A stretch of DNA of 37,855 nucleotides, from NCBI GenBank assembly GCA_035693385.1, contig DASSGQ010000258.1:1-37855 (forward strand), in the 5' to 3' direction. The DNA is from Mycobacterium sp. Lineage in GTDB: Bacteria > Actinomycetota > Actinomycetes > Mycobacteriales > Mycobacteriaceae. This document shows positions 2,714-19,660 of the stretch, piece after piece; within the stretch, counting starts at the first letter, position 1; each line of letters opens with the position of its first letter. The notes under the pieces were generated by a model. It did no database searches and was not told the origin of the DNA. It worked only from the letters and a program-made list of their open reading frames with translations. The translations under genes were made by a program, and so were the position numbers.

Positions 2714-3270
2714 GGCTGGCCTCCCTCGTTGACCTGTGCCGCCAGCCGCAGAGCGCGGTGTTGCAGCACTTTGGCGTTGGCAACGCTGATCCCAAGTTCG
2801 GCAGCGGACTCCTTGATCGAATTGCCTTGTAAGAAACGCATTTCCAAAATCTGGCGATACCGGTCCGGCAGCCGATCGAGGACCTGGGCGACACGCTGGG
2901 GCGCCGTGCTGATCGCTTCCTCGCTCTCGGGTGGTTGTTCGATGTCGTCGATCGAGGTTATCTCTCGTCCCAAGGTCTCGCGCCAGTGCGCGGCCAGCAC
3001 CGTTCTGGCCGTGGCGCGCAAGTATGCGCGCACCTCGCCGACACTGGCACTCAGGCGCAGCGGCCGCAACGCGGCGAGGAACACCTCAGCGGTGAGGTCC
3101 TCGGCGTCGGCCCGGTTGCCGACCCGGGCGAACAGCGTGCGATACACCCACGCCGCGTTGTCCTGGTACACGGCTTCCCAGTCGGGGTAGCCACTGAAGC
3201 CAGCGTCATAGCCACTGTCGGGCACCGCGCGCAGCGGTCGCGGGCCGATGGGTTCGTTGTGTGCCGCCAC
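2710..3270 (-). CDS. ECF RNA polymerase sigma factor
   Basis: Region 2 (DAEDLTAEVFLAA) and region 4 (LPDRYRQILEMRFLQG.SIKESAAELGIS...K...HRAL). GTG start with AAGGAGG upstream. Confidence 0.92.
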   Translation of the reverse strand: MAAHNEPIGPRPLRAVPDSGYDAGFSGYPDWEAVYQDNAAWVYRTLFARVGNRADAEDLTAEVFLAALRPLRLSASVGEVRAYLRATARTVLAAHWRETLGREITSIDDIEQPPESEEAISTAPQRVAQVLDRLPDRYRQILEMRFLQGNSIKESAAELGISVANAKVLQHRALRLAAQVNEGGQP

Positions 3271-3299
3271 GTCCCTCCTTCACCGACCAATATCAGCTC

Positions 3300-3308
3300 G
3301 GGTTACAC
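3300..3308 (-). promoter_or_regulatory. Candidate ECF autoregulatory -35 element GTGTAACCC
   Basis: Same 9-mer as 1997-2005. A GTAAC core is typical of ECF -35 boxes. Confidence 0.5.
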
Positions 3309-3314
3309 ACCGGG

Positions 3315-4739
3315 TCACGGCGCGGTGAGTGCTGGTTCCTCGACCATCAACCGGTCGAGTTTGCCGGCGGTGGCCGACAGCGCTGATTTGGCCATGCTCA
3401 GTATCCGGTCGCGCACCCGGGGATTCGCCGACCCCGGCGCCTGTAGGTGGCCCAGCAGATGCCCCAAGACGTCGAGGCGCGCCGCGGCGAGCCAGGCCGT
3501 CAAGTCCGGGTCGTCGAGCCAGCGCAGTTGATTGCCATAGTCGGCCAGCGTGATGCGCAACCAGTCCAGGTCGGTGTCGGGGTGCGGTAGCGGCACGCAC
3601 AGCCGGTTCTTGACGGAGTCGTCCGGGTCATTGAGATGCGTCGCCTCGACGTGGGCGACCAACGCGGCGCTGAATACCTGTTGGCACCCCCGCACGCTTT
3701 GTAGCGTGATCCGGCCGTCATCGAAAATGGGTGTAGCGGGCCGCTTTTCGGCGCCGTCGGCGGTGCAGTCGAGGAACAGCGCGCGGCCGTGGATCGGCAC
3801 GGTACCCCCGTCGAGGATCATTTGGTCGGCGTCGGTACGGAGCAGGTGGCCCATGCGCACCACATCGGTGATGGCCCGCAGTTGCTCCAGTTCGGCCTGA
3901 GTGACGGTCGCGCAGCGGTACATGGAGGGCCGGATCGCCGGATCGATTCGCAGCAGGGCGCCGGCATCCTCCAGGCGACAGAACAGGTCCTCGACCGACG
4001 CCGCGTCCGCGATGGCCCGCACCCGCGCGGCGAAGTTGGCCTTGATCAGGTCGGCGAACAACGGTCCCGGCTGGACCATCGCGCGATCCAGCAGCCAGGA
4101 GTCGCGGGGCATGATCCAGGTCAGCCGATCCGGGGCGATGCCCTGGCCCAGCAGCCATAGGCACGTGTCGATGCCGGTCTTGCCGGCCCCCACCACGACG
4201 TAGCGCTCGTGGGCGGGGCGGCGCGGCAGGTCGTTCGGCGCGACGCATTCCACGCCCGCGGCAACCCGGTAGGGCGGCGGGCGCATCGAGGGAACCATGA
4301 CGCGCAGGTACGTGGCGTCGACGACGCGGCGTGCCACGTTGACGACGTAATCGGTCCCGGCCAGCGTCGCAAAGCGGCCATCGCCGCGGTATTCGCTCAT
4401 CGGGAAGTAGGAGACCCGCCCGGTCGGCAGCAAGTGTTGGCGCATCACCCGGTCGTAGTAGGCGCAGATTTCCCCGGCGGTCGCTAGTTCGTACAGCCCA
4501 ACGTTGCAGCCGACTTGGTCGATGGTGTCGCTACCGAGGCGCAGCGAGTTCACTCCGTAGAACGCCGAGGGCTGATGCAGCCGCACGAACGGGTAGGCCA
4601 TGGTCCAATGCCCGCCCGGCTGGTGGTTGCGATCGACCAGCACCACGCGTGCCTCGGTTTCCGAGACCAGCGTGTCGACGAACGCCATGCCCATGGCGCC
4701 CGCGCCGACCACCAGGTAGTCGGCCTCGATGGTGCGCAT
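3315..4739 (-). CDS. FAD/NAD(P)-dependent oxidoreductase
   Basis: Two Rossmann motifs (VVGAGAMG and VVGAGKTG) and GGHW; 474 aa. Confidence 0.85.
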   Translation of the reverse strand: MRTIEADYLVVGAGAMGMAFVDTLVSETEARVVLVDRNHQPGGHWTMAYPFVRLHQPSAFYGVNSLRLGSDTIDQVGCNVGLYELATAGEICAYYDRVMRQHLLPTGRVSYFPMSEYRGDGRFATLAGTDYVVNVARRVVDATYLRVMVPSMRPPPYRVAAGVECVAPNDLPRRPAHERYVVVGAGKTGIDTCLWLLGQGIAPDRLTWIMPRDSWLLDRAMVQPGPLFADLIKANFAARVRAIADAASVEDLFCRLEDAGALLRIDPAIRPSMYRCATVTQAELEQLRAITDVVRMGHLLRTDADQMILDGGTVPIHGRALFLDCTADGAEKRPATPIFDDGRITLQSVRGCQQVFSAALVAHVEATHLNDPDDSVKNRLCVPLPHPDTDLDWLRITLADYGNQLRWLDDPDLTAWLAAARLDVLGHLLGHLQAPGSANPRVRDRILSMAKSALSATAGKLDRLMVEEPALTAP

Positions 4740-4761
4740 ATCGGCTAAAGGCTAACCCGAC

Positions 4762-4799
4762 TTGCCAGCACCAGGAGAAGTTACTAGGATATCCTAGTA
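4762..4799 (+). promoter_or_regulatory. SigA-type promoter of the mmsA operon overlapped by a perfect 18-bp palindromic operator
   Basis: TTGCCA (4762-4767), N17, TAGGAT (4785-4790). The palindrome TACTAGGATATCCTAGTA spans 4782-4799. Confidence 0.65.
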
Positions 4800-4831
4800 T
4801 CTAATCTGCTTTTGCGCATTCGAGGACACCC

Positions 4832-6352
4832 ATGACCACACAGATCCCGCACTTCATCGACGGGAAGCGCACCGCCGGCCAGTCCAACCGCACCGCCGAC
4901 GTGTTCAACCCCAGCACCGGCCGGGTGCAGGCGAAAGTTCCGATGGCCGGCCAGGCCGATGTCGACGCTGCGGTGGCCTCGGCCGCCGAAGCCCAAAAGG
5001 GCTGGGCCGCATGGAACCCCCAGCGCCGCGCCCGGGTGATGATGCGATTCATCGAGCTGGTCGACGAGGCAGGCGACGAGTTGGCCGAGCTGCTGTCCCT
5101 CGAACACGGCAAGACGCTGGCCGATGCCCGCGGCGACATCCAGCGCGGCATCGAGGTGATCGAGTTCTGCGTCGGGATCCCGCACCTGCTCAAAGGCGAG
5201 TACAGCGAAGGCGCCGGTGCGGGCATCGACGTCTACTCGCTGCGCCAGCCGCTCGGGGTGGTCGCGGGCATCACCCCGTTCAATTTCCCGGCGATGATCC
5301 CGCTGTGGAAGGCCGGACCGGCGCTGGCGTGCGGAAATGCGTTCTTGCTCAAGCCAAGTGAGCGTGACCCGTCGGTTCCGGTGCGGCTCGCCGAGCTGTT
5401 CATCGAGGCAGGCCTGCCACCCGGCGTGTTCCAGGTCGTGCACGGCGACAAGGAGGCCGTCGACGCGATCCTGCATCACCCCGACATCAAGGCGGTGGGT
5501 TTCGTCGGCAGCTCCGATATCGCGCAGTACATCTACTCGACGTCCGCGGCGACCGGCAAGCGGTCGCAATGCTTCGGCGGAGCCAAGAACCACATGATCG
5601 TGATGCCCGACGCGGACCTCGAGCAGGCCGTCGACGCGCTGATCGGCGCCGGATACGGCAGCGCTGGCGAGCGTTGCATGGCCATCAGCGTCGCGGTGCC
5701 GGTCGGCGAGCAGACCGCGGAACGGTTGCGCGCCAGGCTGGTTGAGCGGATCAACCACTTGCGGGTGGGCCACAGCCTGGACCCCAAGGCCGACTACGGT
5801 CCGCTGGTCACCGAGGCCGCGTTGACGCGGGTGCGCGATTACATCGACCAGGGCGTGGCCGCCGGCGCCGAGATCGTGGTCGACGGCCGCGACCGGCGCA
5901 GCGACGACCTCGCTTTCGGTGACGCGAACCTGGAGGGCGGCTTCTTCATCGGGCCGACCCTGTTCGATCACGTCACCCCCGACATGTCGATCTACACCGA
6001 TGAGATTTTCGGGCCGGTGCTGTGCATGGTCCGCGCGCACGACTACGAAGAAGCGCTGCGGCTGCCCTCGGAGCACGAGTACGGCAACGGCGTGGCGGTG
6101 TTCACCCGCGACGGCGACACCGCCCGCGATTTCGTGTCCCGGGTGCAGGTGGGCATGGTCGGCGTCAACGTGCCGATTCCGGTTCCGGTGGCCTATCACA
6201 CCTTCGGCGGCTGGAAGCGTTCCGGCTTCGGCGACCTCAACCAGCACGGCCCGGCGTCGATTCAGTTCTACACCAAGGTCAAAACCGTCACGTCGCGGTG
6301 GCCGTCGGGCATCAAGGATGGCGCCGAATTCGTCATCCCGACGATGAATTAA
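4832..6352 (+). CDS. mmsA: CoA-acylating methylmalonate-semialdehyde dehydrogenase
   Basis: ALDH motifs ITPFNFP, KPSE, GGAKNH, catalytic GERCMAIS and EIFGP; leads the fadE9/mmsB operon. Confidence 0.95.
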   Translation: MTTQIPHFIDGKRTAGQSNRTADVFNPSTGRVQAKVPMAGQADVDAAVASAAEAQKGWAAWNPQRRARVMMRFIELVDEAGDELAELLSLEHGKTLADARGDIQRGIEVIEFCVGIPHLLKGEYSEGAGAGIDVYSLRQPLGVVAGITPFNFPAMIPLWKAGPALACGNAFLLKPSERDPSVPVRLAELFIEAGLPPGVFQVVHGDKEAVDAILHHPDIKAVGFVGSSDIAQYIYSTSAATGKRSQCFGGAKNHMIVMPDADLEQAVDALIGAGYGSAGERCMAISVAVPVGEQTAERLRARLVERINHLRVGHSLDPKADYGPLVTEAALTRVRDYIDQGVAAGAEIVVDGRDRRSDDLAFGDANLEGGFFIGPTLFDHVTPDMSIYTDEIFGPVLCMVRAHDYEEALRLPSEHEYGNGVAVFTRDGDTARDFVSRVQVGMVGVNVPIPVPVAYHTFGGWKRSGFGDLNQHGPASIQFYTKVKTVTSRWPSGIKDGAEFVIPTMN

Positions 6353-6372
6353 GTCTGCATTAGGACCGCTTC

Positions 6373-7548
6373 ATGGATCTATTCATGCTGAACGACGACG
6401 AACGCGTCATCACCGAGACGGCCGCCGCGTTCGCCGCGAAACGGGTCGCCCCGCATGCCCTGGAATGGGATGCCACCCAGCACTTTCCGGTGGACGTGTT
6501 GCGCGAGGCCGCCGAACTCGGCATGGCGGCGATCTACTGCCGCGATGACGTCGGCGGTAGCGGGCTGCGCCGACTCGACGGGGTCCGCATTTTCGAGCAG
6601 TTGGCCATCGCCGACCCCGTCACCGCGGCGTTCCTGTCCATCCACAACATGTGCGCGTGGATGATCGACACCTTCGGCACCGACGAACAGCGCAAGGAAT
6701 GGGTCCCGAGATTGGCGCCGATGGACGCCATCGCGAGCTATTGCCTGACCGAGCCGGGCGCCGGGTCCGACGCCAGCGCCCTGACCACGCGCGCCGTCAA
6801 GCAGGGTGGCGACTACGTGCTCGACGGCGTGAAGCAGTTCATCTCCGGCGCGGGCGCCTCGGACGTCTACGTGGTAATGGCCAGGACCGGCGGCCAGGAA
6901 AAGCCGGGGCCGCGCGGCATATCGGCGTTCATCATCGAAAAGGACACTCCGGGACTGAGTTTCGGCGCGCATGAACAGAAAATGGGCTGGCACGCGCAAC
7001 CCACCGCACAGGTGATCCTGGACGGGGTGCGGGTGCCCGCCGACGCGATGTTGGGCGGCGCCGAGGGCGAGGGTGCCGGCTTCGGCATCGCGATGAACGG
7101 CCTCAACGGTGGCCGGCTCAACATCGCGGCGTGCTCGCTCGGTGGTGCGCTGGCCGCCTTCGACAAGGCGGGAGCCTACGTGCGGGAGCGACACGCATTC
7201 GGCTCGTCCCTGCTCGACGAGCCGACCATTCGGTTCGCCCTGGCCGACATGGCCACCGGTCTGGAGACGTCGCGAATGATGTTGTGGCGGGCCGCGAATG
7301 CGTTGGACACCGATGACCCCGACAAGGTCGAGCTGTGCGCGATGGCCAAGCGCTACGTGACCGACACGTGCTTCGAGGTGGCGGACAAGGCCCTGCAACT
7401 ACACGGCGGCTACGGCTACCTGCGCGAGTATGGTCTGGAAAAGATCGTTCGCGATCTGCGGGTGCATCGCATCCTGGAAGGGACGAACGAAATCATGCGG
7501 GTCGTCATCGGCCGAGCCGAGGCCGCGCGGTTCCGCGCAACCCTTTAG
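6373..7548 (+). CDS. fadE9: Isobutyryl-CoA (acyl-CoA) dehydrogenase, FadE9-like
   Basis: YCLTEPGAGSD, QLHGGYGYL and ILEGTNEI motifs; valine-catabolism context. Confidence 0.9.
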   Translation: MDLFMLNDDERVITETAAAFAAKRVAPHALEWDATQHFPVDVLREAAELGMAAIYCRDDVGGSGLRRLDGVRIFEQLAIADPVTAAFLSIHNMCAWMIDTFGTDEQRKEWVPRLAPMDAIASYCLTEPGAGSDASALTTRAVKQGGDYVLDGVKQFISGAGASDVYVVMARTGGQEKPGPRGISAFIIEKDTPGLSFGAHEQKMGWHAQPTAQVILDGVRVPADAMLGGAEGEGAGFGIAMNGLNGGRLNIAACSLGGALAAFDKAGAYVRERHAFGSSLLDEPTIRFALADMATGLETSRMMLWRAANALDTDDPDKVELCAMAKRYVTDTCFEVADKALQLHGGYGYLREYGLEKIVRDLRVHRILEGTNEIMRVVIGRAEAARFRATL

Positions 7549-8468: not shown

Positions 8469-9017
8469 TCACGGCACCTTTCGCCCCAGGAAGGCGGCCA
8501 GTTGATCGGCCGGTGCGCGCTCGGATGAGCACGGCTGCTCCTCGGCGAAGAGCTTGCCCGTGCCACGGAACTGGGCGCCCACGAAGGCACGCGCCGCGGC
8601 CAACTGCTCGGCCGCCAACTCGGGGTCGAGATCGGTGGACTGGCCGGTGGCCGCGGCGAGATCCCATGCGTGGGTCAGCACGTCGGTGGTGCGAATTCCG
8701 ACGAAGAGTTGCGCGGGGAATTCGCCGAACGGCAGCTTGAAGATGCCGTCCATGCCGCCCGGTGCCGCGAAGATCTCCTGTGCCGCGGCGGCGCTGGCCC
8801 GGTGTGCCGCAGCGGTGTCGTCGGGCCGGGCGGTCGGCTGCTGGTTGCTGGCCGACCAAATCCCGACGTACTCGTTGCCTCCGATGACATGCTCGATCAG
8901 ATCGCGAATCGTCCACTCCGAACAGGGCGTCGGGCCGTCGAACTGGTCGGGGCTGACATTCGCGAGGACGCCGGCGAATGTGTCCTGCGCACGCTGGTGA
9001 GCAACTAGTGGATCCAC
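8469..9017 (-). CDS. TIGR03086-type DinB/MDMPI metal-binding protein (Rv0738-like)
   Basis: PTPCSEWTIRDLIEH and HAWDLA motifs. GTG start at 9017 follows GAAAGGCAGG. Confidence 0.85.
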   Translation of the reverse strand: MDPLVAHQRAQDTFAGVLANVSPDQFDGPTPCSEWTIRDLIEHVIGGNEYVGIWSASNQQPTARPDDTAAAHRASAAAAQEIFAAPGGMDGIFKLPFGEFPAQLFVGIRTTDVLTHAWDLAAATGQSTDLDPELAAEQLAAARAFVGAQFRGTGKLFAEEQPCSSERAPADQLAAFLGRKVP

Positions 9018-9061
9018 TGTCCTGCCTTTCCAGTCCTTTTCAAGCCTTGTCACGTTCGAGG

Positions 9062-9568
9062 TTAGAAGTCGCCGGCGTTGCGCCGCAACGATTCGATGGA
9101 CGACACCAGCGCTTCGGATTCGCCGGCGTCCATTCCGACGTCGGCGAACACCTGCTGGTTGAGCGTAACCGTGGCGTCGTCGACCGTGGCACGGCCGAGG
9201 TCGGTGATCTGGACCAACGTCGTGCGCCCGTCGGTGGGGTGCGGTAAGCGCTGAACCAGCCCATCAGCCTCCAGCCTGCGAATGGCGTGGGTGACGCTGG
9301 TGACGTGGACCTGCAGGCGATCGGACGCCTTGGTGATCGGCAGCGCTCCCGTGCGGCTGAACGCCAGCAGCCGCAGCAACTCAAAGCGGGAGAAGCTCAA
9401 GTCGTAGGGACGCAACGCGGTTTCGACACGGGCCAGCAGGATTTGATGCGCGCGCATCACCGAGGTGACCGCGACCATGCCCTGCGACACCTCGGCCCAA
9501 CCGGCGCGCTCCCAGTTGGCCCGCGCGGCGGCGATCGGATCGCGCTTCTGAGGTCGTGCTGCGGCCAC
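9062..9568 (-). CDS. MarR-family transcriptional regulator (Rv0737-like)
   Basis: Winged-helix signature SVTHAIRRLEADGLVQR..HPTDGR...ITDLG; RBS AAGAAAGG. Confidence 0.9.
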   Translation of the reverse strand: MAAARPQKRDPIAAARANWERAGWAEVSQGMVAVTSVMRAHQILLARVETALRPYDLSFSRFELLRLLAFSRTGALPITKASDRLQVHVTSVTHAIRRLEADGLVQRLPHPTDGRTTLVQITDLGRATVDDATVTLNQQVFADVGMDAGESEALVSSIESLRRNAGDF

Positions 9569-9585: not shown

Positions 9586-10638
9586 CTAGGACCCTGGCGT
9601 GGCCTTTCCCATCGCGGCCAGCACCGCCAGCGTCGAGCCGCGGTTGCCGACGGTAATCCGCGCGCCACCGTCGGCGTAACAGCGAACGTGCAGTCCGCCG
9701 TCGGCGAATACCTCATGCCACGATCTACCGCGCCCACCCCTCGAAGGCAGGTAGATGAAGTTCGCATGGGCATCGGTGGTGTAGATCCCCAGTGCGCTCA
9801 GGCGCATCCGGAGATAGCGGCGCTCGGCGTTGATCGACTGGATCCGTTGCAGCAGTTGGTCTTCGGCTCGGTACGAGGCCGCCACCGCAAGCATACTGGT
9901 GATCGCGATGCCGAACGGCAGCTGCTGGGACCACAGCTCGCGGGCCAGTTCCGGCGATGCCAGCCCGTAACCGATCCGCAGGCCGGCCAGCCCGTATGCC
10001 TTGGAGAATGTCCGCACCACCACGACGTTGGGGAAACGGGTGACCAACGCCGCAACGTCGACGCGGTGCTCAGGCGCGACGAACTCGACGTACGCCTCGT
10101 CGAGCAGCACGATGGTGTCCCGCGGCACCCGTCGCAAGAACCGCACCAGCTCGGCGGCGGGCTCCAGCGTGCCGGTCGGGTTGTGTGGGCGGCATACCAC
10201 CACCACGCGGGCGTTCGCCGCGGCGTCGGCCAGCCCGTCGAGGTCGTTGTGACCGTCCTCGTCGAGGGGCACGGTCACCGCGTTCAGCCGGCCCATCCGC
10301 GCAACGATCGAATAACCGTCGAAGGTCGGCGACGCCATGGCGATCGTGTCACCCGGCGTGGTCAGTGCCAGCAGGGCCTGCAACACCACACCGGTGGCGC
10401 CGGCGCCCAGCACCACCTGGTCCGATGGCAGGTCGATGTGGTGGGCGATGAGACTGCGCAGCCGTTCGGGCAGGAACTCCGGATACCGGTTGGCCGCACA
10501 GATGGAGCGGATCAACGCCGACCGCACCGCCGGCAGCGGCGGGAACGGATTCTCGTTGAGCGACAACGCAAGCGGATCGACCGCAGTGGGAAGCGCGTCG
10601 TCGATCTCGGGCGCGAAAGGGCTTGGGACGGGTTGCAT
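9586..10638 (-). CDS. PLP-dependent class I/II aromatic aminotransferase (HisC/Pat-like)
   Basis: LSLNENP, PHNPTG, LDEAY and the PLP-lysine motif RTFSKAYGLAGLRIGY. ATG at 10638 forms a TGATG overlap with the KSIII stop. Confidence 0.9.
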   Translation of the reverse strand: MQPVPSPFAPEIDDALPTAVDPLALSLNENPFPPLPAVRSALIRSICAANRYPEFLPERLRSLIAHHIDLPSDQVVLGAGATGVVLQALLALTTPGDTIAMASPTFDGYSIVARMGRLNAVTVPLDEDGHNDLDGLADAAANARVVVVCRPHNPTGTLEPAAELVRFLRRVPRDTIVLLDEAYVEFVAPEHRVDVAALVTRFPNVVVVRTFSKAYGLAGLRIGYGLASPELARELWSQQLPFGIAITSMLAVAASYRAEDQLLQRIQSINAERRYLRMRLSALGIYTTDAHANFIYLPSRGGRGRSWHEVFADGGLHVRCYADGGARITVGNRGSTLAVLAAMGKATPGS

Positions 10639-11657
10639 CAGCCTCGCCCGCCCCAGCGCACCGCCGCCGCACCGGCGAAATCGCCGGCGTGGGCGAAGGC
10701 CGCCATCATGACCACGTCGCCCGCCTTGACCTGACCGTCGGATATCGCGCGGTCGAGGTTGACCGGGATCCCGGCCCCGAACAGGTTGCCGCACTCTTCA
10801 AAGGTGTCCCGATGGCGTTCGGGCGGCAATTCGAGCGCTTCCCGCCAATTGCGCAGGAACGCCCGGTTGGGCTGATTGGTGACCAGTAGGTCGATGTCTT
10901 TGGCGGGCAGGCCGATTCGGTCGCAGACCGCCAGCGCCACCTCGGGAACCTGCCGGTTGCCGCGGGCCAGCACCTTGGTGATCTTGCTTTCGGTGAAGCC
11001 GATGCTGCCCTCGCCCGGCCCGGCAGCCCACCATTTGCGGGGCGGGTCGTAGGAGAGCGTCATTTCGCCGGCGTATGCCCCGTAGGTGCGGCATTCCACA
11101 TCGAGAATCGGCGACTCGTCGCTCGCCGTGACCAGGCCCACCGCCGCCCCGTCGCCGGGCACCGCCGACTGCGCCTTGCGGCGAATCGTGGGCTGGTCGA
11201 AGAATTGCCCGGCCGCATTCTGCGCGATCGCGATCAGCGCGGTGTGCCCCTCTCCGGTCGACAGCAGTTTGCGAGCCACGTTGAGCGCCAACACAAACGC
11301 CGCGCAGCCACCGTTGTTCAGGTCGAGCACCCAGGACGGCCGCAAGCCCAGGCGGTGCGCGATGCCGCCGCCTTCACCGTAGAACGCCATGTCCGGCACC
11401 TGGGTGTGGGTGATCAACACGTCGGCATTTTCGACGGCGTCGTGGCCGTGGCGTTCGATCAAGCCCTGCGCCGCGCGCTCGACCATGTCGATCGCGCTTT
11501 CGTCCGATCCGACGTGATGCCGAAACTTGGGCGCGCGGAACATGAGGTTGTCGCGGAGGTCGTCGGATTCGGCGAATTGCGCGTAGTACTCGGCCGGGAT
11601 CGGTTCACCGGGTAGATAAGTGGAGACGTCGATCAGGCTGACGCTCGGCTTGCTCAT
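10638..11657 (-). CDS. FabH-like beta-ketoacyl synthase III (NzsJ/CqsB1-like)
   Basis: Active-site Cys in LDLNNGGCAAF, plus GDGA and GN (ECGNL). TNQPN replaces the canonical HQAN. Confidence 0.85.
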   Translation of the reverse strand: MSKPSVSLIDVSTYLPGEPIPAEYYAQFAESDDLRDNLMFRAPKFRHHVGSDESAIDMVERAAQGLIERHGHDAVENADVLITHTQVPDMAFYGEGGGIAHRLGLRPSWVLDLNNGGCAAFVLALNVARKLLSTGEGHTALIAIAQNAAGQFFDQPTIRRKAQSAVPGDGAAVGLVTASDESPILDVECRTYGAYAGEMTLSYDPPRKWWAAGPGEGSIGFTESKITKVLARGNRQVPEVALAVCDRIGLPAKDIDLLVTNQPNRAFLRNWREALELPPERHRDTFEECGNLFGAGIPVNLDRAISDGQVKAGDVVMMAAFAHAGDFAGAAAVRWGGRG

Positions 11658-11675
11658 GCTGTTTCTCACTCGTTC

Positions 11676-12323
11676 TCACCGCATCCACACGGGGGTCACC
11701 GGCAGGCCGTTGCGGTGGCGGTACTCGGCGATTGCCTTGAGGTTCTTCATTTCCAACAGGTGGCCGGCGCCGAACATGTCCCAGAAGTCGCCGACCCACA
11801 CCGGGCGCTGCGGCGGTGCGGTCTCCGGATACGGGTTGCGGTCGTAGAACGGGTGACGGCAATTGGTCCACAGCACAACCGAACCCGGCTTGTCGAGCAC
11901 CACCTGGGCGTCGATGACGCGCATCAGATAGATCATCCACAGGTGCTTGCCCTGATCCCACGCGCAGTGGTAGTCGACGGTGCGGGCGTGGCTGTTGGCG
12001 ATGGTCCGGGTGTAGATCTTGGTCTCCGAGCCGAGCCGGTCGTAGGCCAGCCACAGGCCGGGCTCGTCGGTGGTGGTGAAACCCCGCAGACTGTAGGTCC
12101 ACTCCTCGAGGCTTCGAGTGTCGGCCAGGTATTCGTACAACTCGTCCGGCGGGCAGTCGATGTAGTCGTTGACGGTGCAATACTCCCCGAAAACCTGATC
12201 GTGTGGGTACACCGACCGCATCATGTCCATGATGATCGGGGTGGCCTTCTCCCGGGGGCTGGTCTCGATACGGACCACCCCCTCGATGGGCGTACGGATA
12301 TCCTCAAGCGCTGGCAGCGACAT
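11676..12323 (-). CDS. SRPBCC/polyketide-cyclase fold protein, candidate carbazole synthase (NzsI/CqsB2-like)
   Basis: 215 aa with the SRPBCC pattern (IDCPPDELYEYLAD..SLEEW and C-terminal helix HLLEMKNLKAIAE). RBS AAGGAG lies inside the ThDP gene. Positioned between the ThDP enzyme and KSIII. Confidence 0.75.
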   Translation of the reverse strand: MSLPALEDIRTPIEGVVRIETSPREKATPIIMDMMRSVYPHDQVFGEYCTVNDYIDCPPDELYEYLADTRSLEEWTYSLRGFTTTDEPGLWLAYDRLGSETKIYTRTIANSHARTVDYHCAWDQGKHLWMIYLMRVIDAQVVLDKPGSVVLWTNCRHPFYDRNPYPETAPPQRPVWVGDFWDMFGAGHLLEMKNLKAIAEYRHRNGLPVTPVWMR

Positions 12324-14058
12324 CGGTCCGGTTCTCCTTTGCAATGGAACTGTCTTGTGTGAGATCCGCTTTGGCCGGCTGCGTGTTGAGAAATGGTGCA
12401 AAAGGCGGGATCTCGTCGGCGGCACACTCGACACTGACCACGGCAGGGCCGTCGACGGCCAGCACCCCGCGCATGGCAGCGGCGAAGCCCTCGAGGTCGG
12501 TGACGTCGACGGACGTCAGCCCGGGGAACATCGCCGCCAGGCCGGCACCCAAGCGGCTGGAGCGAAATCGGTTGTAGCTGTAGAGATCTTCGTAGAAGAG
12601 CCGCTCACGGGTCACGCACATGGCGTGGGCATTGTTGTTGAACAACACGAACGTCACCGGGAGCTGGTAATGCACGGCGGTATGGACCTCCATGCCGTGC
12701 ATGAAAAACGCCCCGTCCCCGGCGATCACGACGGTGCGGCCGCCCGGTCGTCCGCTGTTCGGGCGCCCGAAAGCCATCCCGATGCCGGCGCCGAAGCTGT
12801 AGCCCATGCCACCCATGCCGAGCGCGACCGCGAACCTGCCGCCGCGCCGTGCCGGCAGGTAGTGGATCGCCGCCGCGCCGGTGTTGCCGGCGTCGACCAC
12901 GATGTCCGCCCCGTCGGGCACGCAACCGTCCAGCACCGCCATCGCGTCGCGGTAGCGCACCCCGGCGCCGAGGCAGGGCGGGGGTGTCAGTTCGGTGCGC
13001 CGCACCACATCCGGCACCCGCACACCAGTCGGCCGTCCCGCTCCGGACAGCGCCTGGGTCAGCATGCGCAGCGAGCCGCGCAGGTCGTCGGTGTGCACGT
13101 GGGTGCACGAAACGTAGGGCGGCGCCGATCCGATCGAGACCGTCCGCGCCGCCGCAAGGGCGTCGTCGAGTCCGGTGCGCGCGGTGACCGACAGTCGGGT
13201 GCCCACCACCAGGCACACGGCGCTGTCGGCCACCGCCTGGGCCACACCCGGGTGGCCCATGACACCGGTCACCCCGAGCGCCGACGACGACCCGAGCCCC
13301 GGCGTGCCCGCGACGTCCTTGGCGTCGGGCACGGTCGCCACCCGTGCCCGCAACACCGCACGCAGCGCCTCGAGTTCGGCGCGGGCGTTATCCCGGGCCA
13401 CCTGTTCGCCGACGATGAGGGTCACCGGGCCGCGCGCGTGGCGCAGTATTCCGACGATCGGTTGGGGGTTACCGATGGGACGCAGACCCTGGGTGGCCAA
13501 CCCACTTCGAGTTCCGGCACGCTCCCGGTCCACGCGCCCCTGCTGAATGTCCTTGGGCAGCAACAACACTGCGGGGCCGCCGGTGCGCGCTGCGGCGATC
13601 GCCGCCGACAGCGCCGGTACGACGCCGGCCGGGGTGAGCACCCGCTCGCAGAAGAGGGACACCGCGGAAAACACCGCCTGCGCGTTCAACGAGCCGTTGT
13701 CGCCACTGGTGTCCTGAAAGCTGCCCCGCCCGTCCATGGTGGTGGCCGTTTGGCCGACCAGTGCCAACACCGGAACCCGGCTCGTCAGCGACTCCCCCAG
13801 GGCCGCTACGAGATTCAGTGCGCCGCCACCCGAGGTCGCCGCGACCACCCCCAGCCCGGCCCCGCTGCGGCTGTACCCGTCGGCCATGGTGGCGGCGGAG
13901 AACTCGTGCTTGGCCAGGACCGCGGTGATGTCGGAGCGGAAGTGTGCGGCGTCGTACAGGTCCTCGATGTTGGCGCCGTCGACGCCGAAGATGTGGTCGA
14001 CCCCGATTGCCGCGAGGCGTTCGACGATGTGGTCGACCACCCGGTGCGTCCTTGGCAT
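12304..14058 (-). CDS. ThDP-dependent carboligase (acetolactate synthase superfamily; NzsH/CqsB3/ScyA-like)
   Basis: Catalytic Glu in KHEFSA and the ThDP/Mg motif GDGAF...LFNNN. ATG at 14058 lies 6 nt after a SigL-type -10. Confidence 0.9.
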   Translation of the reverse strand: MPRTHRVVDHIVERLAAIGVDHIFGVDGANIEDLYDAAHFRSDITAVLAKHEFSAATMADGYSRSGAGLGVVAATSGGGALNLVAALGESLTSRVPVLALVGQTATTMDGRGSFQDTSGDNGSLNAQAVFSAVSLFCERVLTPAGVVPALSAAIAAARTGGPAVLLLPKDIQQGRVDRERAGTRSGLATQGLRPIGNPQPIVGILRHARGPVTLIVGEQVARDNARAELEALRAVLRARVATVPDAKDVAGTPGLGSSSALGVTGVMGHPGVAQAVADSAVCLVVGTRLSVTARTGLDDALAAARTVSIGSAPPYVSCTHVHTDDLRGSLRMLTQALSGAGRPTGVRVPDVVRRTELTPPPCLGAGVRYRDAMAVLDGCVPDGADIVVDAGNTGAAAIHYLPARRGGRFAVALGMGGMGYSFGAGIGMAFGRPNSGRPGGRTVVIAGDGAFFMHGMEVHTAVHYQLPVTFVLFNNNAHAMCVTRERLFYEDLYSYNRFRSSRLGAGLAAMFPGLTSVDVTDLEGFAAAMRGVLAVDGPAVVSVECAADEIPPFAPFLNTQPAKADLTQDSSIAKENRTDVAASA

Positions 14059-14064
14059 GTCTTT

Positions 14065-14092
14065 AACACGACACGCGCGTACCTTCAGTTCA
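14065..14092 (-). promoter_or_regulatory. SigL-type promoter (TGAACT-N16-CGTGTT), leaderless, driving the ThDP operon
   Basis: Matches the recalled SigL consensus TGAACC-N16-CGT and the sigL upstream element at 11 of 12 box positions with identical spacing. Confidence 0.75.
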
Positions 14093-14107: not shown

Positions 14108-14884
14108 TTACATCGAGCGCTGCAGCAGAACCTCGCCGCTGTCAGCGGAAACCACTTGCACGGCGGCAATCTGGTCGACCGGCGTGGAGATGCTGCCCGC
14201 GGGCGTCGCGGTGTGGCCGGGTTCGGCCACCCACGTTGCCAGCCGGGTTTGGCTGCCGTCGCGACCCACCACCACCATCGCCAGGGTGTCATGGTGGGCA
14301 TTCAGCGGCGCCAGGCAGACACACTTGAGGTTGATGGACGTCCCCCAGTGCTGGCTGGACAGCTGCACCGTCGAGGCCAGCAGGTTCGTACCGACCTGCA
14401 CCATCGGCTGCGAGGATGCGGTCACCTGCTGCGCGGGTGCCGAGGTGTAGCCCTGCACACCGACGAACACCCCGATTCCGAGCACCGCGGCCGCAGCGGC
14501 CGAGGCCACCCAGGTCGCCACCCGCGTGCGGCGCCGGCGCCAGCGCACCGTTGCCAGCAACGACGGCAGCAACTCCGGCGACAATGCAGGCGTCTCCGGC
14601 AAAGACTCAGCACGGCCGTTGATCGCGGCCACTTCTGCTCGGTCAAGCCGCGAAAGCAGGGCCGGCACGCCACTCATATCGGCGACGGCCTCCCGGCATG
14701 CCGGGCAGTTGGCCATGTGCTCCTCGAATTCACGGCGGTCGGAGGCAGACAGCGACCCCAACACGTATGCGGCATCCCACATCGCGTAGCGGTGGTTGTC
14801 ACGCCCAGTCAGGTCGAACACCTCGTTGCCGTGATTGTCATAGGGAGGGCCGATACCCCGTAACGGCGTCCTCATTTCATCCAT
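14108..14884 (-). CDS. rslA: Anti-sigma-L factor (ZAS zinc finger, TM helix, extracellular domain)
   Basis: HxxxCxxC (EHMANCPAC), then RRRR and a TM helix; directly downstream of sigL. The start may be 14875. Confidence 0.9.
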   Translation of the reverse strand: MDEMRTPLRGIGPPYDNHGNEVFDLTGRDNHRYAMWDAAYVLGSLSASDRREFEEHMANCPACREAVADMSGVPALLSRLDRAEVAAINGRAESLPETPALSPELLPSLLATVRWRRRRTRVATWVASAAAAAVLGIGVFVGVQGYTSAPAQQVTASSQPMVQVGTNLLASTVQLSSQHWGTSINLKCVCLAPLNAHHDTLAMVVVGRDGSQTRLATWVAEPGHTATPAGSISTPVDQIAAVQVVSADSGEVLLQRSM

Positions 14885-14954: not shown

Positions 14955-15500
14955 TCATCGGGTAACCCCAAGTTCCTGCAGAGTGAGTCGCAATGCCCGC
15001 ACGGCATAGTGTAGTCGCGACTTCACTGTTCCTTCGGCGATCTCAAGATCTGCAGCAATCTGCGCGGTGGTCCAGCCGCGGTAGTAGGACCGTTCGATCA
15101 CGGCCCGGTGCTCTGGCGACAATTGGACCAACGCATCGGCGATCAGCAGCCGGTCCAGCGCCGCGTTCACCTCGTCGGGCGTGGACTGTTCGGGCGCGCC
15201 CGCTTCGTCGAGGGAGCCGACGACGTTGCGGTACCGTGCGCTGCGTCGGTCGTCGATGATCATGTTGCGGGCGACGGTGAACAGCCACGCCCGCGCTGAC
15301 CGTTCGGTGTCCCCGATTACCTCGGGATGCTGCCACGCCCGTAACAGCGTCTCCTGCACGACGTCCTCGGCCTGGCTCGCGTCCCCCGTCAACCGGAGCG
15401 CGTAGCGCCATAAAACCGCGGCATGCTCGTCATAGAGCGCCTTCATCAGGGCGGCTTCGGCTGCCCCGGACGCCCCCCGAGTACTGGCCACACGAGCCAC
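14955..15500 (-). CDS. sigL: ECF sigma factor SigL
   Basis: AEAALMKALYDEH...AEDVVQETLLRAWQHP...GTVKSRLHYAVRAL, between map and rslA. GTG at 15500 follows GGAGGTG. Confidence 0.93.
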   Translation of the reverse strand: MARVASTRGASGAAEAALMKALYDEHAAVLWRYALRLTGDASQAEDVVQETLLRAWQHPEVIGDTERSARAWLFTVARNMIIDDRRSARYRNVVGSLDEAGAPEQSTPDEVNAALDRLLIADALVQLSPEHRAVIERSYYRGWTTAQIAADLEIAEGTVKSRLHYAVRALRLTLQELGVTR

Positions 15501-15519
15501 TCGATCACCTCCGCCTACT

Positions 15520-15547
15520 GACACGAGTGGAGTAGGTGTTTAGTTCA
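15520..15547 (-). promoter_or_regulatory. SigL autoregulatory promoter TGAACT-N16-CGTGTC
   Basis: Lies in the map-sigL gap and fits the recalled SigL consensus and known sigL autoregulation. Confidence 0.8.
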
Positions 15548-16938: not shown

Positions 16939-18260
16939 TTGAGGAACCCTTCGTAGTTGCGCTGCATGAGCTGACTTTCGATTTGCTTGACCGTATCCAA
17001 ACCGACGCCAATCATGATCAAAACCGCAGTACCGCCGAACGGCAAGTTTTGGACGCCTCCGCCATTGCCGATCTGAAGGAAAAGATTGGGCAGCACGGCT
17101 ATCACCCCGAGGTAGATCGAGCCGGGCAGGGTAATCCGGTTCAGCACATAACGCAGGTAGTCCGCGGTCGGCTTTCCGGGGCGAATGCCCGGAATGAAGC
17201 CACCGAACTTCTTCATCTCGTCGGCGCGTTCGTCGGGATTGAAGGTGACCGACACGTAGAAGTACGTGAAGAAGATGATCAGTCCGAAGTAAATGGCGAT
17301 GTAGACCGGGTCGCTCGGGTCCGACAGGTAGGTGCCGACGAATTTGTCCCACCAACTGTTGCCGACACCCCCGGTGCCGCTACGGACCAGCTGGGTGATC
17401 AGGTGCGGAATGTAGATCAGCGACGACGCAAAGATGACCGGAATAACCCCGGCCTGGTTGACCTTGAGCGGCAGATACGTCGAGGTTCCGCCGTACATGC
17501 GCCGTCCGACCATCCGCTTGGCGTATTGCACCGGGATCCGGCGCTGGCCCTGCTCGACGAACACCACGCCGACGATGATGATCAGCGCGGCGACGCAGAC
17601 GGCGGCGAAGATGATCCCGCCGCGGCTGTCCAGGATGGACTTGCCTTCGGCGGGGATGCGTGCCGCGATGCCGACGAAAATCAGCAACGACATGCCGTTG
17701 CCGATGCCGCGTTCGGTGATCAGCTCACCCATCCACATCACCAGCGCGGCGCCGGCCGTCATCACCAGCACGATGACGACCAGGGTGAAGATGCTCTGGT
17801 CGGCGATGATGTCCAGCGAGCAGCCCTGGAGCAGACCGCCGTTGGCCGCCAGCGCCACGATGCTGGTGGCTTGCAGGATGGCCAGCGCGATCGCCAGGTA
17901 ACGGGTGTACTGGGTCATCTTGGCCTGACCCGATTGGCCCTCCTTGCGCAACTCCTCGAAGCGCGGGATGACCACCGTGAGCAGCTGCACGATGATGCTC
18001 GCGGTGATGTAGGGCATCACCCCGACCGCGAACACCGTGAGCTTCAGCAGCGCGCCACCGGAGAACAGGTTGATCAGCGAGTAGATCTGTCCGGCCTCGC
18101 CGCCGCTGGCCTCCTTGATGCACTGCTGCACGTTCGGGTAGTTCACGCCGGGGGACGGTAATGCGGCGCCGACCCGATAGAGAAGGACGATGCCAAGTGT
18201 GAAGAGGATCTTCCGTCTCAGGTCGACTGTCCGCAGCGATGAGATGAAAGCCGAAAGCAC
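16935..18260 (-). CDS. secY: Preprotein translocase subunit SecY
   Basis: About 10 TM helices with motifs [24 protein letters not shown] and GGTAVLI. Confidence 0.98.
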
Positions 18261-18353
18261 TCTTCTCCTCCTGCGCTACCGTGGGTCATCCTGCATCACG
18301 CGCCCAACACCCGCAGGCCAGGACGTACGGCGTCGCGCGTCAAACCGTGTACG

Positions 18354-18359
18354 AGACTA
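18354..18359 (-). promoter_or_regulatory. Probable -10 (TAGTCT) of the secY promoter
   Basis: TANNNT hexamer with a TG extension 94 nt upstream of secY. Confidence 0.45.
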
Positions 18360-18377
18360 ACAGCTGATCGGGCGAGA

Positions 18378-18432
18378 GCCTTTCAAGGCCCTTTCAAGGG
18401 CCTTTCAGGGGCCGTTCAGGGGCCGTTCAAGT
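18378..18432. repeat. Five tandem imperfect 11-bp repeats
   Basis: Units are GCCTTTCAAGG, CCCTTTCAAGG, GCCTTTCAGGG, GCCGTTCAGGG and GCCGTTCAAGT. Confidence 0.85.
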
Positions 18433-18754
18433 CCGGTCGAGGGGCAGGTCGCTGCGGCCGCGTAGGAACCCCCACAAGGCACAGGCGACGCTCAGCGACG
18501 AGGCGTACAGTGCTAGCTGGCTCATTGCTTTTGCTAAGTATCGAAGGCCGTCCGGGGAGCAATCTATGGCGCACCTGAGCAGCACACGGTTTAACGGCGG
18601 CACGTGTGGTCAGACGGTGGGGCTGCGGCAACGCCACGGCATCGATCTCGACAGGGCCCCCTGACCCGCCGGCCAGGCGTCCTTCGCCGAGCCCGCCGCT
18701 GCGCCGGGACCAGCCGAACCAACAACTAAAAGCCGCTCAAACCGCAGGAGCACC

Positions 18755-19660
18755 ATGACACGCACCGATCAAGACAGCTGGGACCTGGCCTCGAGTGTCG
18801 GCGCCACGGCGACCATGGTCGCCGCAGCCCGCGCGTTGGCCAGCTCAGAGACCGACGCGATCATCAGCGACCCGTTCGCCGCGCCATTGGTGCGGGCGGT
18901 CGGCGTCGACTTCTTCATCCGGCTGGTTGACGGTGCCGTCCTCCCGGCGGACGCGCCGGAGGGACAGCGGGACCTGCGGCTGGAAACGGATTCGATCGCG
19001 GTCCGCACCCGCTTTTTCGACGACTTCTTCCTCAACGCCGCCCGCGACGGCATCAAACAATCGGTGATCCTGGCCGCCGGCCTCGACGCGCGCGCCTACC
19101 GGCTGGCCTGGCCGCCGGGGAGCGCGGTCTACGAAGTCGATCAGCCCAAGGTCATCGAGTTCAAGGACGCGGCCATGGCGAACCTGAGCGCGGCCCCGTC
19201 CGCGGATCGGAGAACCGTCAGCATCGATCTGCGGGAGGATTGGCCGGCTGCGCTGCGCCGCAGCGGATTTGACGTCACGCAACCAACTTCCTGGAGCGCC
19301 GAGGGCTTGCTGATGTACCTCCCGCCGGACGCTCAGGATCGCCTTTTCGACAAGATCACCGAACTCAGCGCTCCCGGCAGCAAACTGGCCACCGAATACC
19401 ACGGCGATTCCGGCGAGACGATGACCGCCCGCGCACAGCAATTCAACGATCGATGGGCCAATCTCGGCTGCGACATCAACCTGTCGGGATTGTTCTTCGA
19501 CGGCGAGCGCAGCAATGTCGTCGACTACCTGACCGAGCGGGGCTGGCAAGTCACCACCAGGCCCCGGCGTGACTACTTCGCCGATTACGGCCGCGTCTTC
19601 CCGGAGGACGAGACATCCCAGCTTCGCAACATCGTCGCCCTTACCGCTGTCCGCATCTAG
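18755..19660 (+). CDS. SAM-dependent methyltransferase (Rv0731c/TIGR00027 family), copy 1
   Basis: [27 protein letters not shown] and SAEGLL motifs. Confidence 0.92.

Follow-up and report, generated by a model that had tools for sequence, protein, structure and literature searches.

What does a mycobacterium make with four genes that resemble, family by family, the carbazole-forming enzymes of Streptomyces? The question is raised by a cassette in a 37,855-nucleotide stretch of DNA from Mycobacterium sp. (assembly GCA_035693385.1, contig DASSGQ010000258.1), which is referred to here, at its full length, as the window. The genome under study is a 70% complete assembly, and the sequencing runs containing the window are labelled soil metagenome. 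A first-pass annotation, made by a model from the sequence, had described four tightly linked minus-strand genes with a 20-bp overlap, an 18-bp gap, and a TGATG junction, lying between rslA and a MarR gene. All four open reading frames are intact over 14058..9586, the three junctions are present, and both flanks were borne out, with the sigma factor gene upstream matching SigL (E 5e-97). In the order of transcription, the genes encode a thiamine diphosphate (ThDP)-dependent enzyme (P0001), an SRPBCC cyclase (P0002), a ketosynthase (KS) III-like enzyme (P0003), and an aminotransferase (P0004). On the basis of homology, orthology, fold, active-site residues, conservation, and a promoter motif, from which we infer the substrates, the product, the dependence on SigL, and the role, the cassette is probably a minimal pathway, under SigL control, to carbazoles that bear a long alkyl chain. 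In this scheme, SigL would switch the cassette on, and the homologues of CqsB7, CqsB3, CqsB1, and CqsB2 would form a minimal pathway from tryptophan, pyruvate, and a fatty acid to a lipid-tailed carbazole.

The relation of P0002 to NzsI/CqsB2 that the first-pass annotation had proposed held at the levels of both sequence and fold. P0002 has no match in Pfam, and CqsB2 (PDB 6ipv) is its only significant sequence match in the PDB (E 1.4e-49). A Foldseek search with the AlphaFold model of P0002 (predicted local distance difference test score, 90.7) also returned 6ipv as the first match (E 9e-22, template modelling score 0.78), followed by a second match at E 2e-7. P0002 is 44% identical to P0126, a UniRef representative from S. 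exfoliatus, and the alignment with P0126 showed that P0002 keeps four of the five catalytic residues proposed for CqsB2 (Glu105, Tyr144, Tyr172, His206, and Glu209; PMC7466098): Y144, Y172, H206, and E209 correspond to Y132, Y160, H188, and E191 of P0002, respectively, and Glu105 corresponds to D95. These four residues and D95 of P0002 are invariant in 80/80 loci (locus counts out of 80, here and below, refer to the best 80 related loci).

The database names of the families raise the possibility that genes of primary metabolism (acetolactate synthase, FabH, and HisC) have come together by chance, or that the cassette is an inactive relic, as one frameshifted copy in a relative (L173) would suggest. 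We regard this explanation as very improbable, since all of the scores fall under the curated acetohydroxyacid synthase (AHAS), FabH, and HisC cut-offs. P0001 contains the Pfam TPP N, M, and C domains, Glu52, and a GDG...NN motif, but scores only 183 bits against a cut-off of 538 in the curated family model of acetolactate synthase, and its best PDB matches are BbmA and CsmA, ahead of AHAS. P0003, assigned to ACP_syn_III by Pfam, scores 96 bits against the FabH cut-off of 292. P0004, with Lys213 as the pyridoxal phosphate-binding residue, matches PRK03321 best in NCBIfam, below the cut-off, and scores 237 bits against the HisC cut-off of 277; a separate aminotransferase paralogue is located on contig C331 of this genome. 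The cyclase plays no part in primary metabolism, the active-site residues are invariant, and 12/36 sampled genomes of the genus have no cyclase match. Grouping by chance is excluded because the four-gene order is kept in 74/80 loci and the flanks recur: of these 74 full-order loci, 46 have rslA immediately 5' of the cassette and 62 have marR immediately 3'.

Orthology was examined with L135 (genome G1003), which was taken as a stand-in for a characterised cqs/nzs cluster because its cyclase falls in the same 90% cluster as P0126 and because it also holds genes for a prenyltransferase, FabH, acyl carrier protein (ACP), a NUDIX-family isomerase, and a P450, alongside an aminotransferase gene. 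The four L135 proteins find the window genes first in the genome under study. Conversely, the window ThDP enzyme, KS, and aminotransferase find the L135 genes first in G1003, where the cyclase has a single match. Reciprocal best hits, which the first-pass annotation had named as supporting evidence, were thus obtained for all four genes. The identities to the cqs-type proteins are 36% (ThDP enzyme), 44% (cyclase), 27% (KS), and 44% (aminotransferase).

Phylogenetic trees of the cyclase (58 rows, midpoint root) and of the KS (32/59 rows, FabH-like outgroup; one fragment dropped and two over-long reading frames trimmed to domain length) both split five Cqs-like loci from a larger group containing the window, other Mycobacteriales, and many Streptomyces. 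In the KS tree, the group of P0003 is sister to the CqsB1 clade. Members of the larger group in which all three core genes adjoin one another have the order ThDP > cyclase > KS, whereas L135 and L136 are transcribed KS > cyclase > ThDP. The match to the nzsH-I-J order reported in the first-pass annotation therefore stands for adjacency but not for direction. L137 has a mixed order, and the cassettes of L094 and L154 are interrupted by a hemerythrin gene and by a nitrate/nitrite-sensing kinase gene accompanied by roadblock and GTPase genes. The KS His-to-Asn replacement described below, the reversed order, and the 27–44% identities led us to place the cassette in a sister clade. As judged from its sequence, the cassette probably works like cqs/nzs but belongs to this separate clade; the earlier claim of a minimal carbazole pathway is largely supported by homology, orthology, and fold.

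The cassette contains no prenyltransferase gene and no dedicated ACP or FabH gene for the supply of a 3-hydroxybutyryl unit, and queries for these had no match among the related mycobacterial loci searched. With neither ACP nor FabH in the cassette, the simplest assumption is that the fatty acyl donor would come from primary metabolism, and the product is likely unprenylated, with a long fatty-acyl tail. As its role, that of an envelope-soluble antioxidant or redox lipid is likely.

The promoter region, not mentioned in the first-pass annotation, suggests how the cassette may be switched on. The motif TGAACT-16-CGTGTT ends 6 nt 5' of the ThDP start codon, so that the transcript would be leaderless or nearly so, and a motif of the same type, TGAACT-16-CGTGTCAG, precedes sigL. 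The TGAAC element at –35, which appears in the window's own sigL promoter, is one that we take to be that of the SigL consensus. In 59/73 relatives, a SigL-type motif is located no more than 70 bp from the ThDP start (7/80 loci were excluded, as the gene start is outside the locus). The spacer is always 16 nt long, and the background frequency of the motif is 0.006 per 70 bp. Among loci from outside Mycobacterium, the motif occurs in 8/8 with a sigL neighbour and in 0/35 without one, and sigL is present in 24/24 cassette-bearing genomes versus 7/14 cassette-free ones. RslA senses oxidation. The –10 element of the sigL self-promoter is identical to that of the P-sigL scaffold of PMC6372665. On these grounds, the cassette is predicted to be under SigL control. 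The coordinates are collected in Table 1.

Table 1. Positions in the window of the cassette genes, their neighbours, and the predicted promoters
Feature	Position	Strand	Remarks
ThDP-dependent carboligase P0001, CqsB3/NzsH homologue	14058-12304	-	584 aa
SRPBCC cyclase P0002, CqsB2/NzsI type	12323-11676	-	215 aa
KSIII-like condensing enzyme P0003, CqsB1/NzsJ homologue	11657-10638	-	339 aa
Class I/II aromatic aminotransferase P0004, CqsB7/NzsD homologue	10638-9586	-	350 aa
rslA anti-sigma factor	14108-14884	-	zf-HC2; after sigL; start codon uncertain
sigL, extracytoplasmic function (ECF) sigma factor	14955-15500	-	181 aa; E 5e-97 to M. tuberculosis SigL, PDB 6dv9
MarR regulator, likely Rv0737/Ms_1492 orthologue	9062-9568	-	Pfam MarR
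Predicted SigL-dependent promoter	14065-14092	-	TGAACT-16-CGTGTT
sigL self-promoter	15518-15547	-	TGAACT-16-CGTGTCAG

The rslA gene ends 49 bp upstream of the ThDP gene, and marR starts 17 bp downstream of the cassette. The MarR gene is a conserved flank with no part in the chemistry; it is present in 5/5 tested genomes without the cassette, and in the cassette-free genome G031 rslA lies 19 bp from marR. The adjacency of the two genes in M. tuberculosis, which the first-pass annotation had stated, fits the gene numbering Rv0735-0737 (PMC3544749), which implies the same state as in G031. The MarR protein Rv0737/Ms_1492 binds the sigL-rslA promoter (PMC13002591). Direct control of the cassette by MarR was considered and is unsupported, the Ms_1488 promoter having served as a non-target control in that paper. 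A gene of the MDMPI_N/DinB family follows marR (window 8469-9053, minus strand) in 19/80 related loci, with no link to the cassette seen. A horizontal island was likewise rejected, as the GC content (0.66-0.72) equals that of the surroundings and the synteny is genus-wide. In three RNA runs, metatranscriptome contigs covered sigL, rslA, and the cassette with short and scattered pieces; as contigs cannot demonstrate transcription, they were not used.

A second SigL-type motif was found on contig C23 of this genome (413-7202, L178), preceding genes for a FAD_binding_3 (FAD, flavin adenine dinucleotide) enzyme, a DUF4389 protein, and an S-adenosylmethionine-dependent methyltransferase, and this module is opposite an FtsX-type ABC transporter. 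In 18/80 loci, no more than 8 kb separate the FAD gene from the cassette, and the gene occurs in 13/24 cassette-bearing versus 0/14 cassette-free genomes. Back-to-back SigL-type motifs on opposite strands near 6180-6245, one facing the ThDP gene and the other the ABC transporter, were seen in 10/11 loci checked (L018, L019, L022, L026, L032, L036, L038, L039, L049, and L071). The FAD enzyme and the methyltransferase may tailor the product, making this a candidate tailoring and export module. The FAD enzyme query had no match in four Tsukamurella genomes or in G927. This lack of a match indicates that the FAD enzyme is optional and unneeded for the core, and a role for it in 3-mono-oxygenation is unsupported.

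Three links tie the clade indirectly to carbazoles. The first is Tsukamurella, since lipocarbazoles come from Tsukamurella pseudospumae (PMC11387468). The order ThDP > cyclase > KS with a Cys-Asn-Asn KS was found in 14/14 Tsukamurella loci fetched, plus L091 and L162, and a CqsB2 search of four Tsukamurella genomes gave the sister-clade locus as the sole match in 4/4. The species among the matches listed include T. paurometabola, T. pulmonis, T. ocularis, and others. The second is Streptomyces sp. RKND-216, in which carbazoquinocin G is up-regulated in co-culture with M. smegmatis, as stated in two reviews. The RKND-216 cyclase is 90% identical to that of the sister-clade locus L152 and has Asp at the Glu105 position. 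A contribution of M. smegmatis to carbazoquinocin G in this co-culture is conceivable, as that species likely has its own cassette. The third is the putative chlCz (chlocarbazomycin) cluster, which matches the sister-clade locus L139 in gene sizes and content. Near 11400-14000 in L139 and L144, and at 4800-7350 in L140, genes for an ACP, a cyclopropane-synthase-like methyltransferase, and a FAD oxidoreductase are found, with sizes that fit the chlCz table. Other Streptomyces loci of the clade carry further genes: in L143 (10565-11917) and L152 (6765-8204), the cassette ends with a class III aminotransferase, a candidate for antiostatin-type 4-amino carbazoles, and in L149 (6462-8072) an aromatic amino-acid lyase, which might supply an aryl acyl donor, adjoins the KS. 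Carbazoquinocin annotations in a Micromonospora strain had low scores and no genome link, and were not used.

The cyclase is widespread, being present in 24/36 sampled genomes of the genus, 81/250 of the family, and 38/401 of one Streptomyces-like genus; its spread outside Actinomycetota rests on named matches only. Named cyclase homologues include those of the M. avium complex, M. xenopi, M. riyadhense, M. abscessus, and M. chelonae. In some mycobacteria (L172, L174, and L089), a second copy of the cassette occurs with an acyl-AMP ligase and an O-methyltransferase, and in L172 also with an ACP and a FAD enzyme; it appears to be a tailored variant equipped for its own acyl supply. In L173 (genome G008), one copy is fragmented and lies next to sigL, and in a second copy the cyclase and KS share one 562-aa reading frame (2998-7509 and 17309-18997). 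In M. smegmatis mc2 155, MSMEG_1488-1491 are of 1731, 681, 1023, and 1014 bp on the same strand (supplement of PMC8931766). According to a table of the same paper, MSMEG_1488 and MSMEG_1489 overlap by 20 bp, like the first two genes of the window, and a 35-nt stretch of MSMEG_1488 given there encodes the glycine-rich motif of P0001. MSMEG_1492 is a MarR homologue (PMC13002591), and MSMEG_1486 is presumably sigL, judging from its position and size. MSMEG_1488-1491 are thus likely the cassette. As M. smegmatis likely carries the cassette itself, it offers no clean background for expression, and a deletion host is needed.

Several observations weigh against a carbazole route. At the substrate end, tryptophan is not fixed by the aminotransferase sequence, because the closest solved relative of P0004 (4r2n) is annotated as a putative phenylalanine aminotransferase. 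The cyclase pocket is not identical to that of CqsB2, as it carries E105D (Asp95 of P0002 in place of the catalytic Glu105), R143I, and H203G. These two features, together with the mycobacterial cassette having no Trp-pathway gene, would also fit a pathway in which the same chemistry is applied to phenylpyruvate or 4-hydroxyphenylpyruvate and the cyclase forms a ring of the naphthol type, the product then being a lipid with an alkyl-naphthol or naphthoquinone structure. We consider this outcome unlikely: the cqs-type aminotransferase is a reciprocal best hit, carbazole-producing lineages have this clade, and a benzene ring is less nucleophilic than indole C2. In addition, a TrpB-like gene adjoins 10/16 Tsukamurella cassettes, which is weak evidence as synteny within one genus.

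The KS raises a different doubt. P0003 has a Cys118-Asn261-Asn291 triad, and the alignment puts Asn261 at the position of the His of FabH and of the CqsB1 type; P0003 is thus without the catalytic His of the Cys-His-Asn triad of the CqsB1 clade. This replacement is clade-wide (Asn for His in 78/79 KS relatives), and the KS is just 27% identical to the CqsB1 type. A Cys-Asn-Asn KS might O-acylate its substrate or condense it otherwise, and the SRPBCC protein might direct another kind of ring closure; the product would then be an indole acyloin ester, a furanone, or another non-carbazole. Pairs of ThDP enzyme and KSIII also make furanolides. The CqsB1 product, moreover, rearranges spontaneously to indole esters (PMC7466098). 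Nevertheless, this alternative too has a small likelihood in our view, since the KS branches as the sister group of the CqsB1 clade and sits beside a cyclase that keeps four catalytic residues, and since the only CqsB2 homologue of Tsukamurella adjoins only this KS type.

The remaining points against a SigL-controlled carbazole route concern the wider evidence. The identities to cqs-type proteins are modest (27–44%), and no assays of sister-clade enzymes were found in the literature searched. The counted genomes are kin and not independent, and Fisher co-occurrence tests overstate the association. In line with the first-pass annotation, no mycobacterial carbazole or pathway to one was found in the literature searched, which did not extend to most subscription journals or to the original reports on cqs and nzs with their supplements. 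The lipids of M. smegmatis have been much studied, and a missing carbazole there counts against the route. As for the links to producers, T. pseudospumae is not among the matches listed for the Tsukamurella loci, the genome of the RKND-216 cyclase, when sought among 41 Streptomyces-related genomes, gave a best match of 90%, and the chlCz assignment is putative, made without a knockout (PMC10100901). As for control, the window –10 element TGTTAA misses the revised SigL consensus T-G-N-C/A-A-G (PMC6372665) at –9 and –7, many relatives having TGTCA. In M. smegmatis RNA-seq data (PMC8931766), co-induction with MSMEG_1486 was uneven, comprising three of the four genes for one drug and two of the four for the other.

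A broader proposal seems possible to us, at somewhat less than an even chance: that most non-tuberculous mycobacteria, including M. smegmatis, the M. avium complex, and M. abscessus, make unreported Trp-derived alkyl-carbazole envelope lipids through a His-less KS and a FAD/methyltransferase module, that these lipids are an ancestral SigL stress output, and that lineages including M. tuberculosis kept SigL and lost the pathway. The main reading itself predicts a whole class of small-molecule lipids in a heavily studied genus and provides a concrete target for SigL, whose role is poorly defined. It also points to candidate genes for the lipocarbazoles and carbazoquinocins, and perhaps for the route to 3-mono-oxygenated carbazoles, which a 2020 review listed as unidentified (PMC7466098). 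M. smegmatis offers a direct test of the predicted lipid.

Comparison with known systems indicates that the core chemistry is known, whereas the predicted mycobacterial lipid is unreported. The M. tuberculosis SigL regulon shares the sigma factor and is small and centred on lipids and polyketides (sigL-rslA, pks10-pks7, mpt53-Rv2877c, and Rv1139c-Rv1138c); as described in PMC4105308, it includes no such cassette. The carquinostatin (cqsB1/B2/B3/B7) and neocarazostatin (nzsJ/I/H/D) clusters of Streptomyces share with the cassette the four families, reciprocal best hits, the cyclase fold, and four of the five catalytic residues. The cassette differs from them in its separate clade, its reversed order, the Cys-Asn-Asn KS, Asp for Glu105, and the SigL-type promoter, and it is without ACP, FabH, prenyltransferase, isopentenyl diphosphate isomerase, and P450. 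The carbazomycin cluster cbz (S. luteosporeus, PMC11610953), like the cassette, has an aminotransferase, a ThDP enzyme, a cyclase, and a KS without ACP or FabH, and an acyl-CoA has been proposed as its donor. The cbz proteins are 51–68% identical to Nzs/Cqs, hence nearer to the Cqs clade, and the cluster itself has an O-methyltransferase, a short-chain dehydrogenase/reductase, and a FAD protein (PMC11610953). Compared with the cassette, most Tsukamurella loci have no aminotransferase (just 1/16 has one), and the SigL motif is absent from both loci tested. The lipocarbazoles (T. pseudospumae Acta 1857) and carbazoquinocin G (RKND-216) are long-chain carbazoles, and their lineages carry the cyclase of this clade, 70–78% and 54% identical to P0002, respectively.

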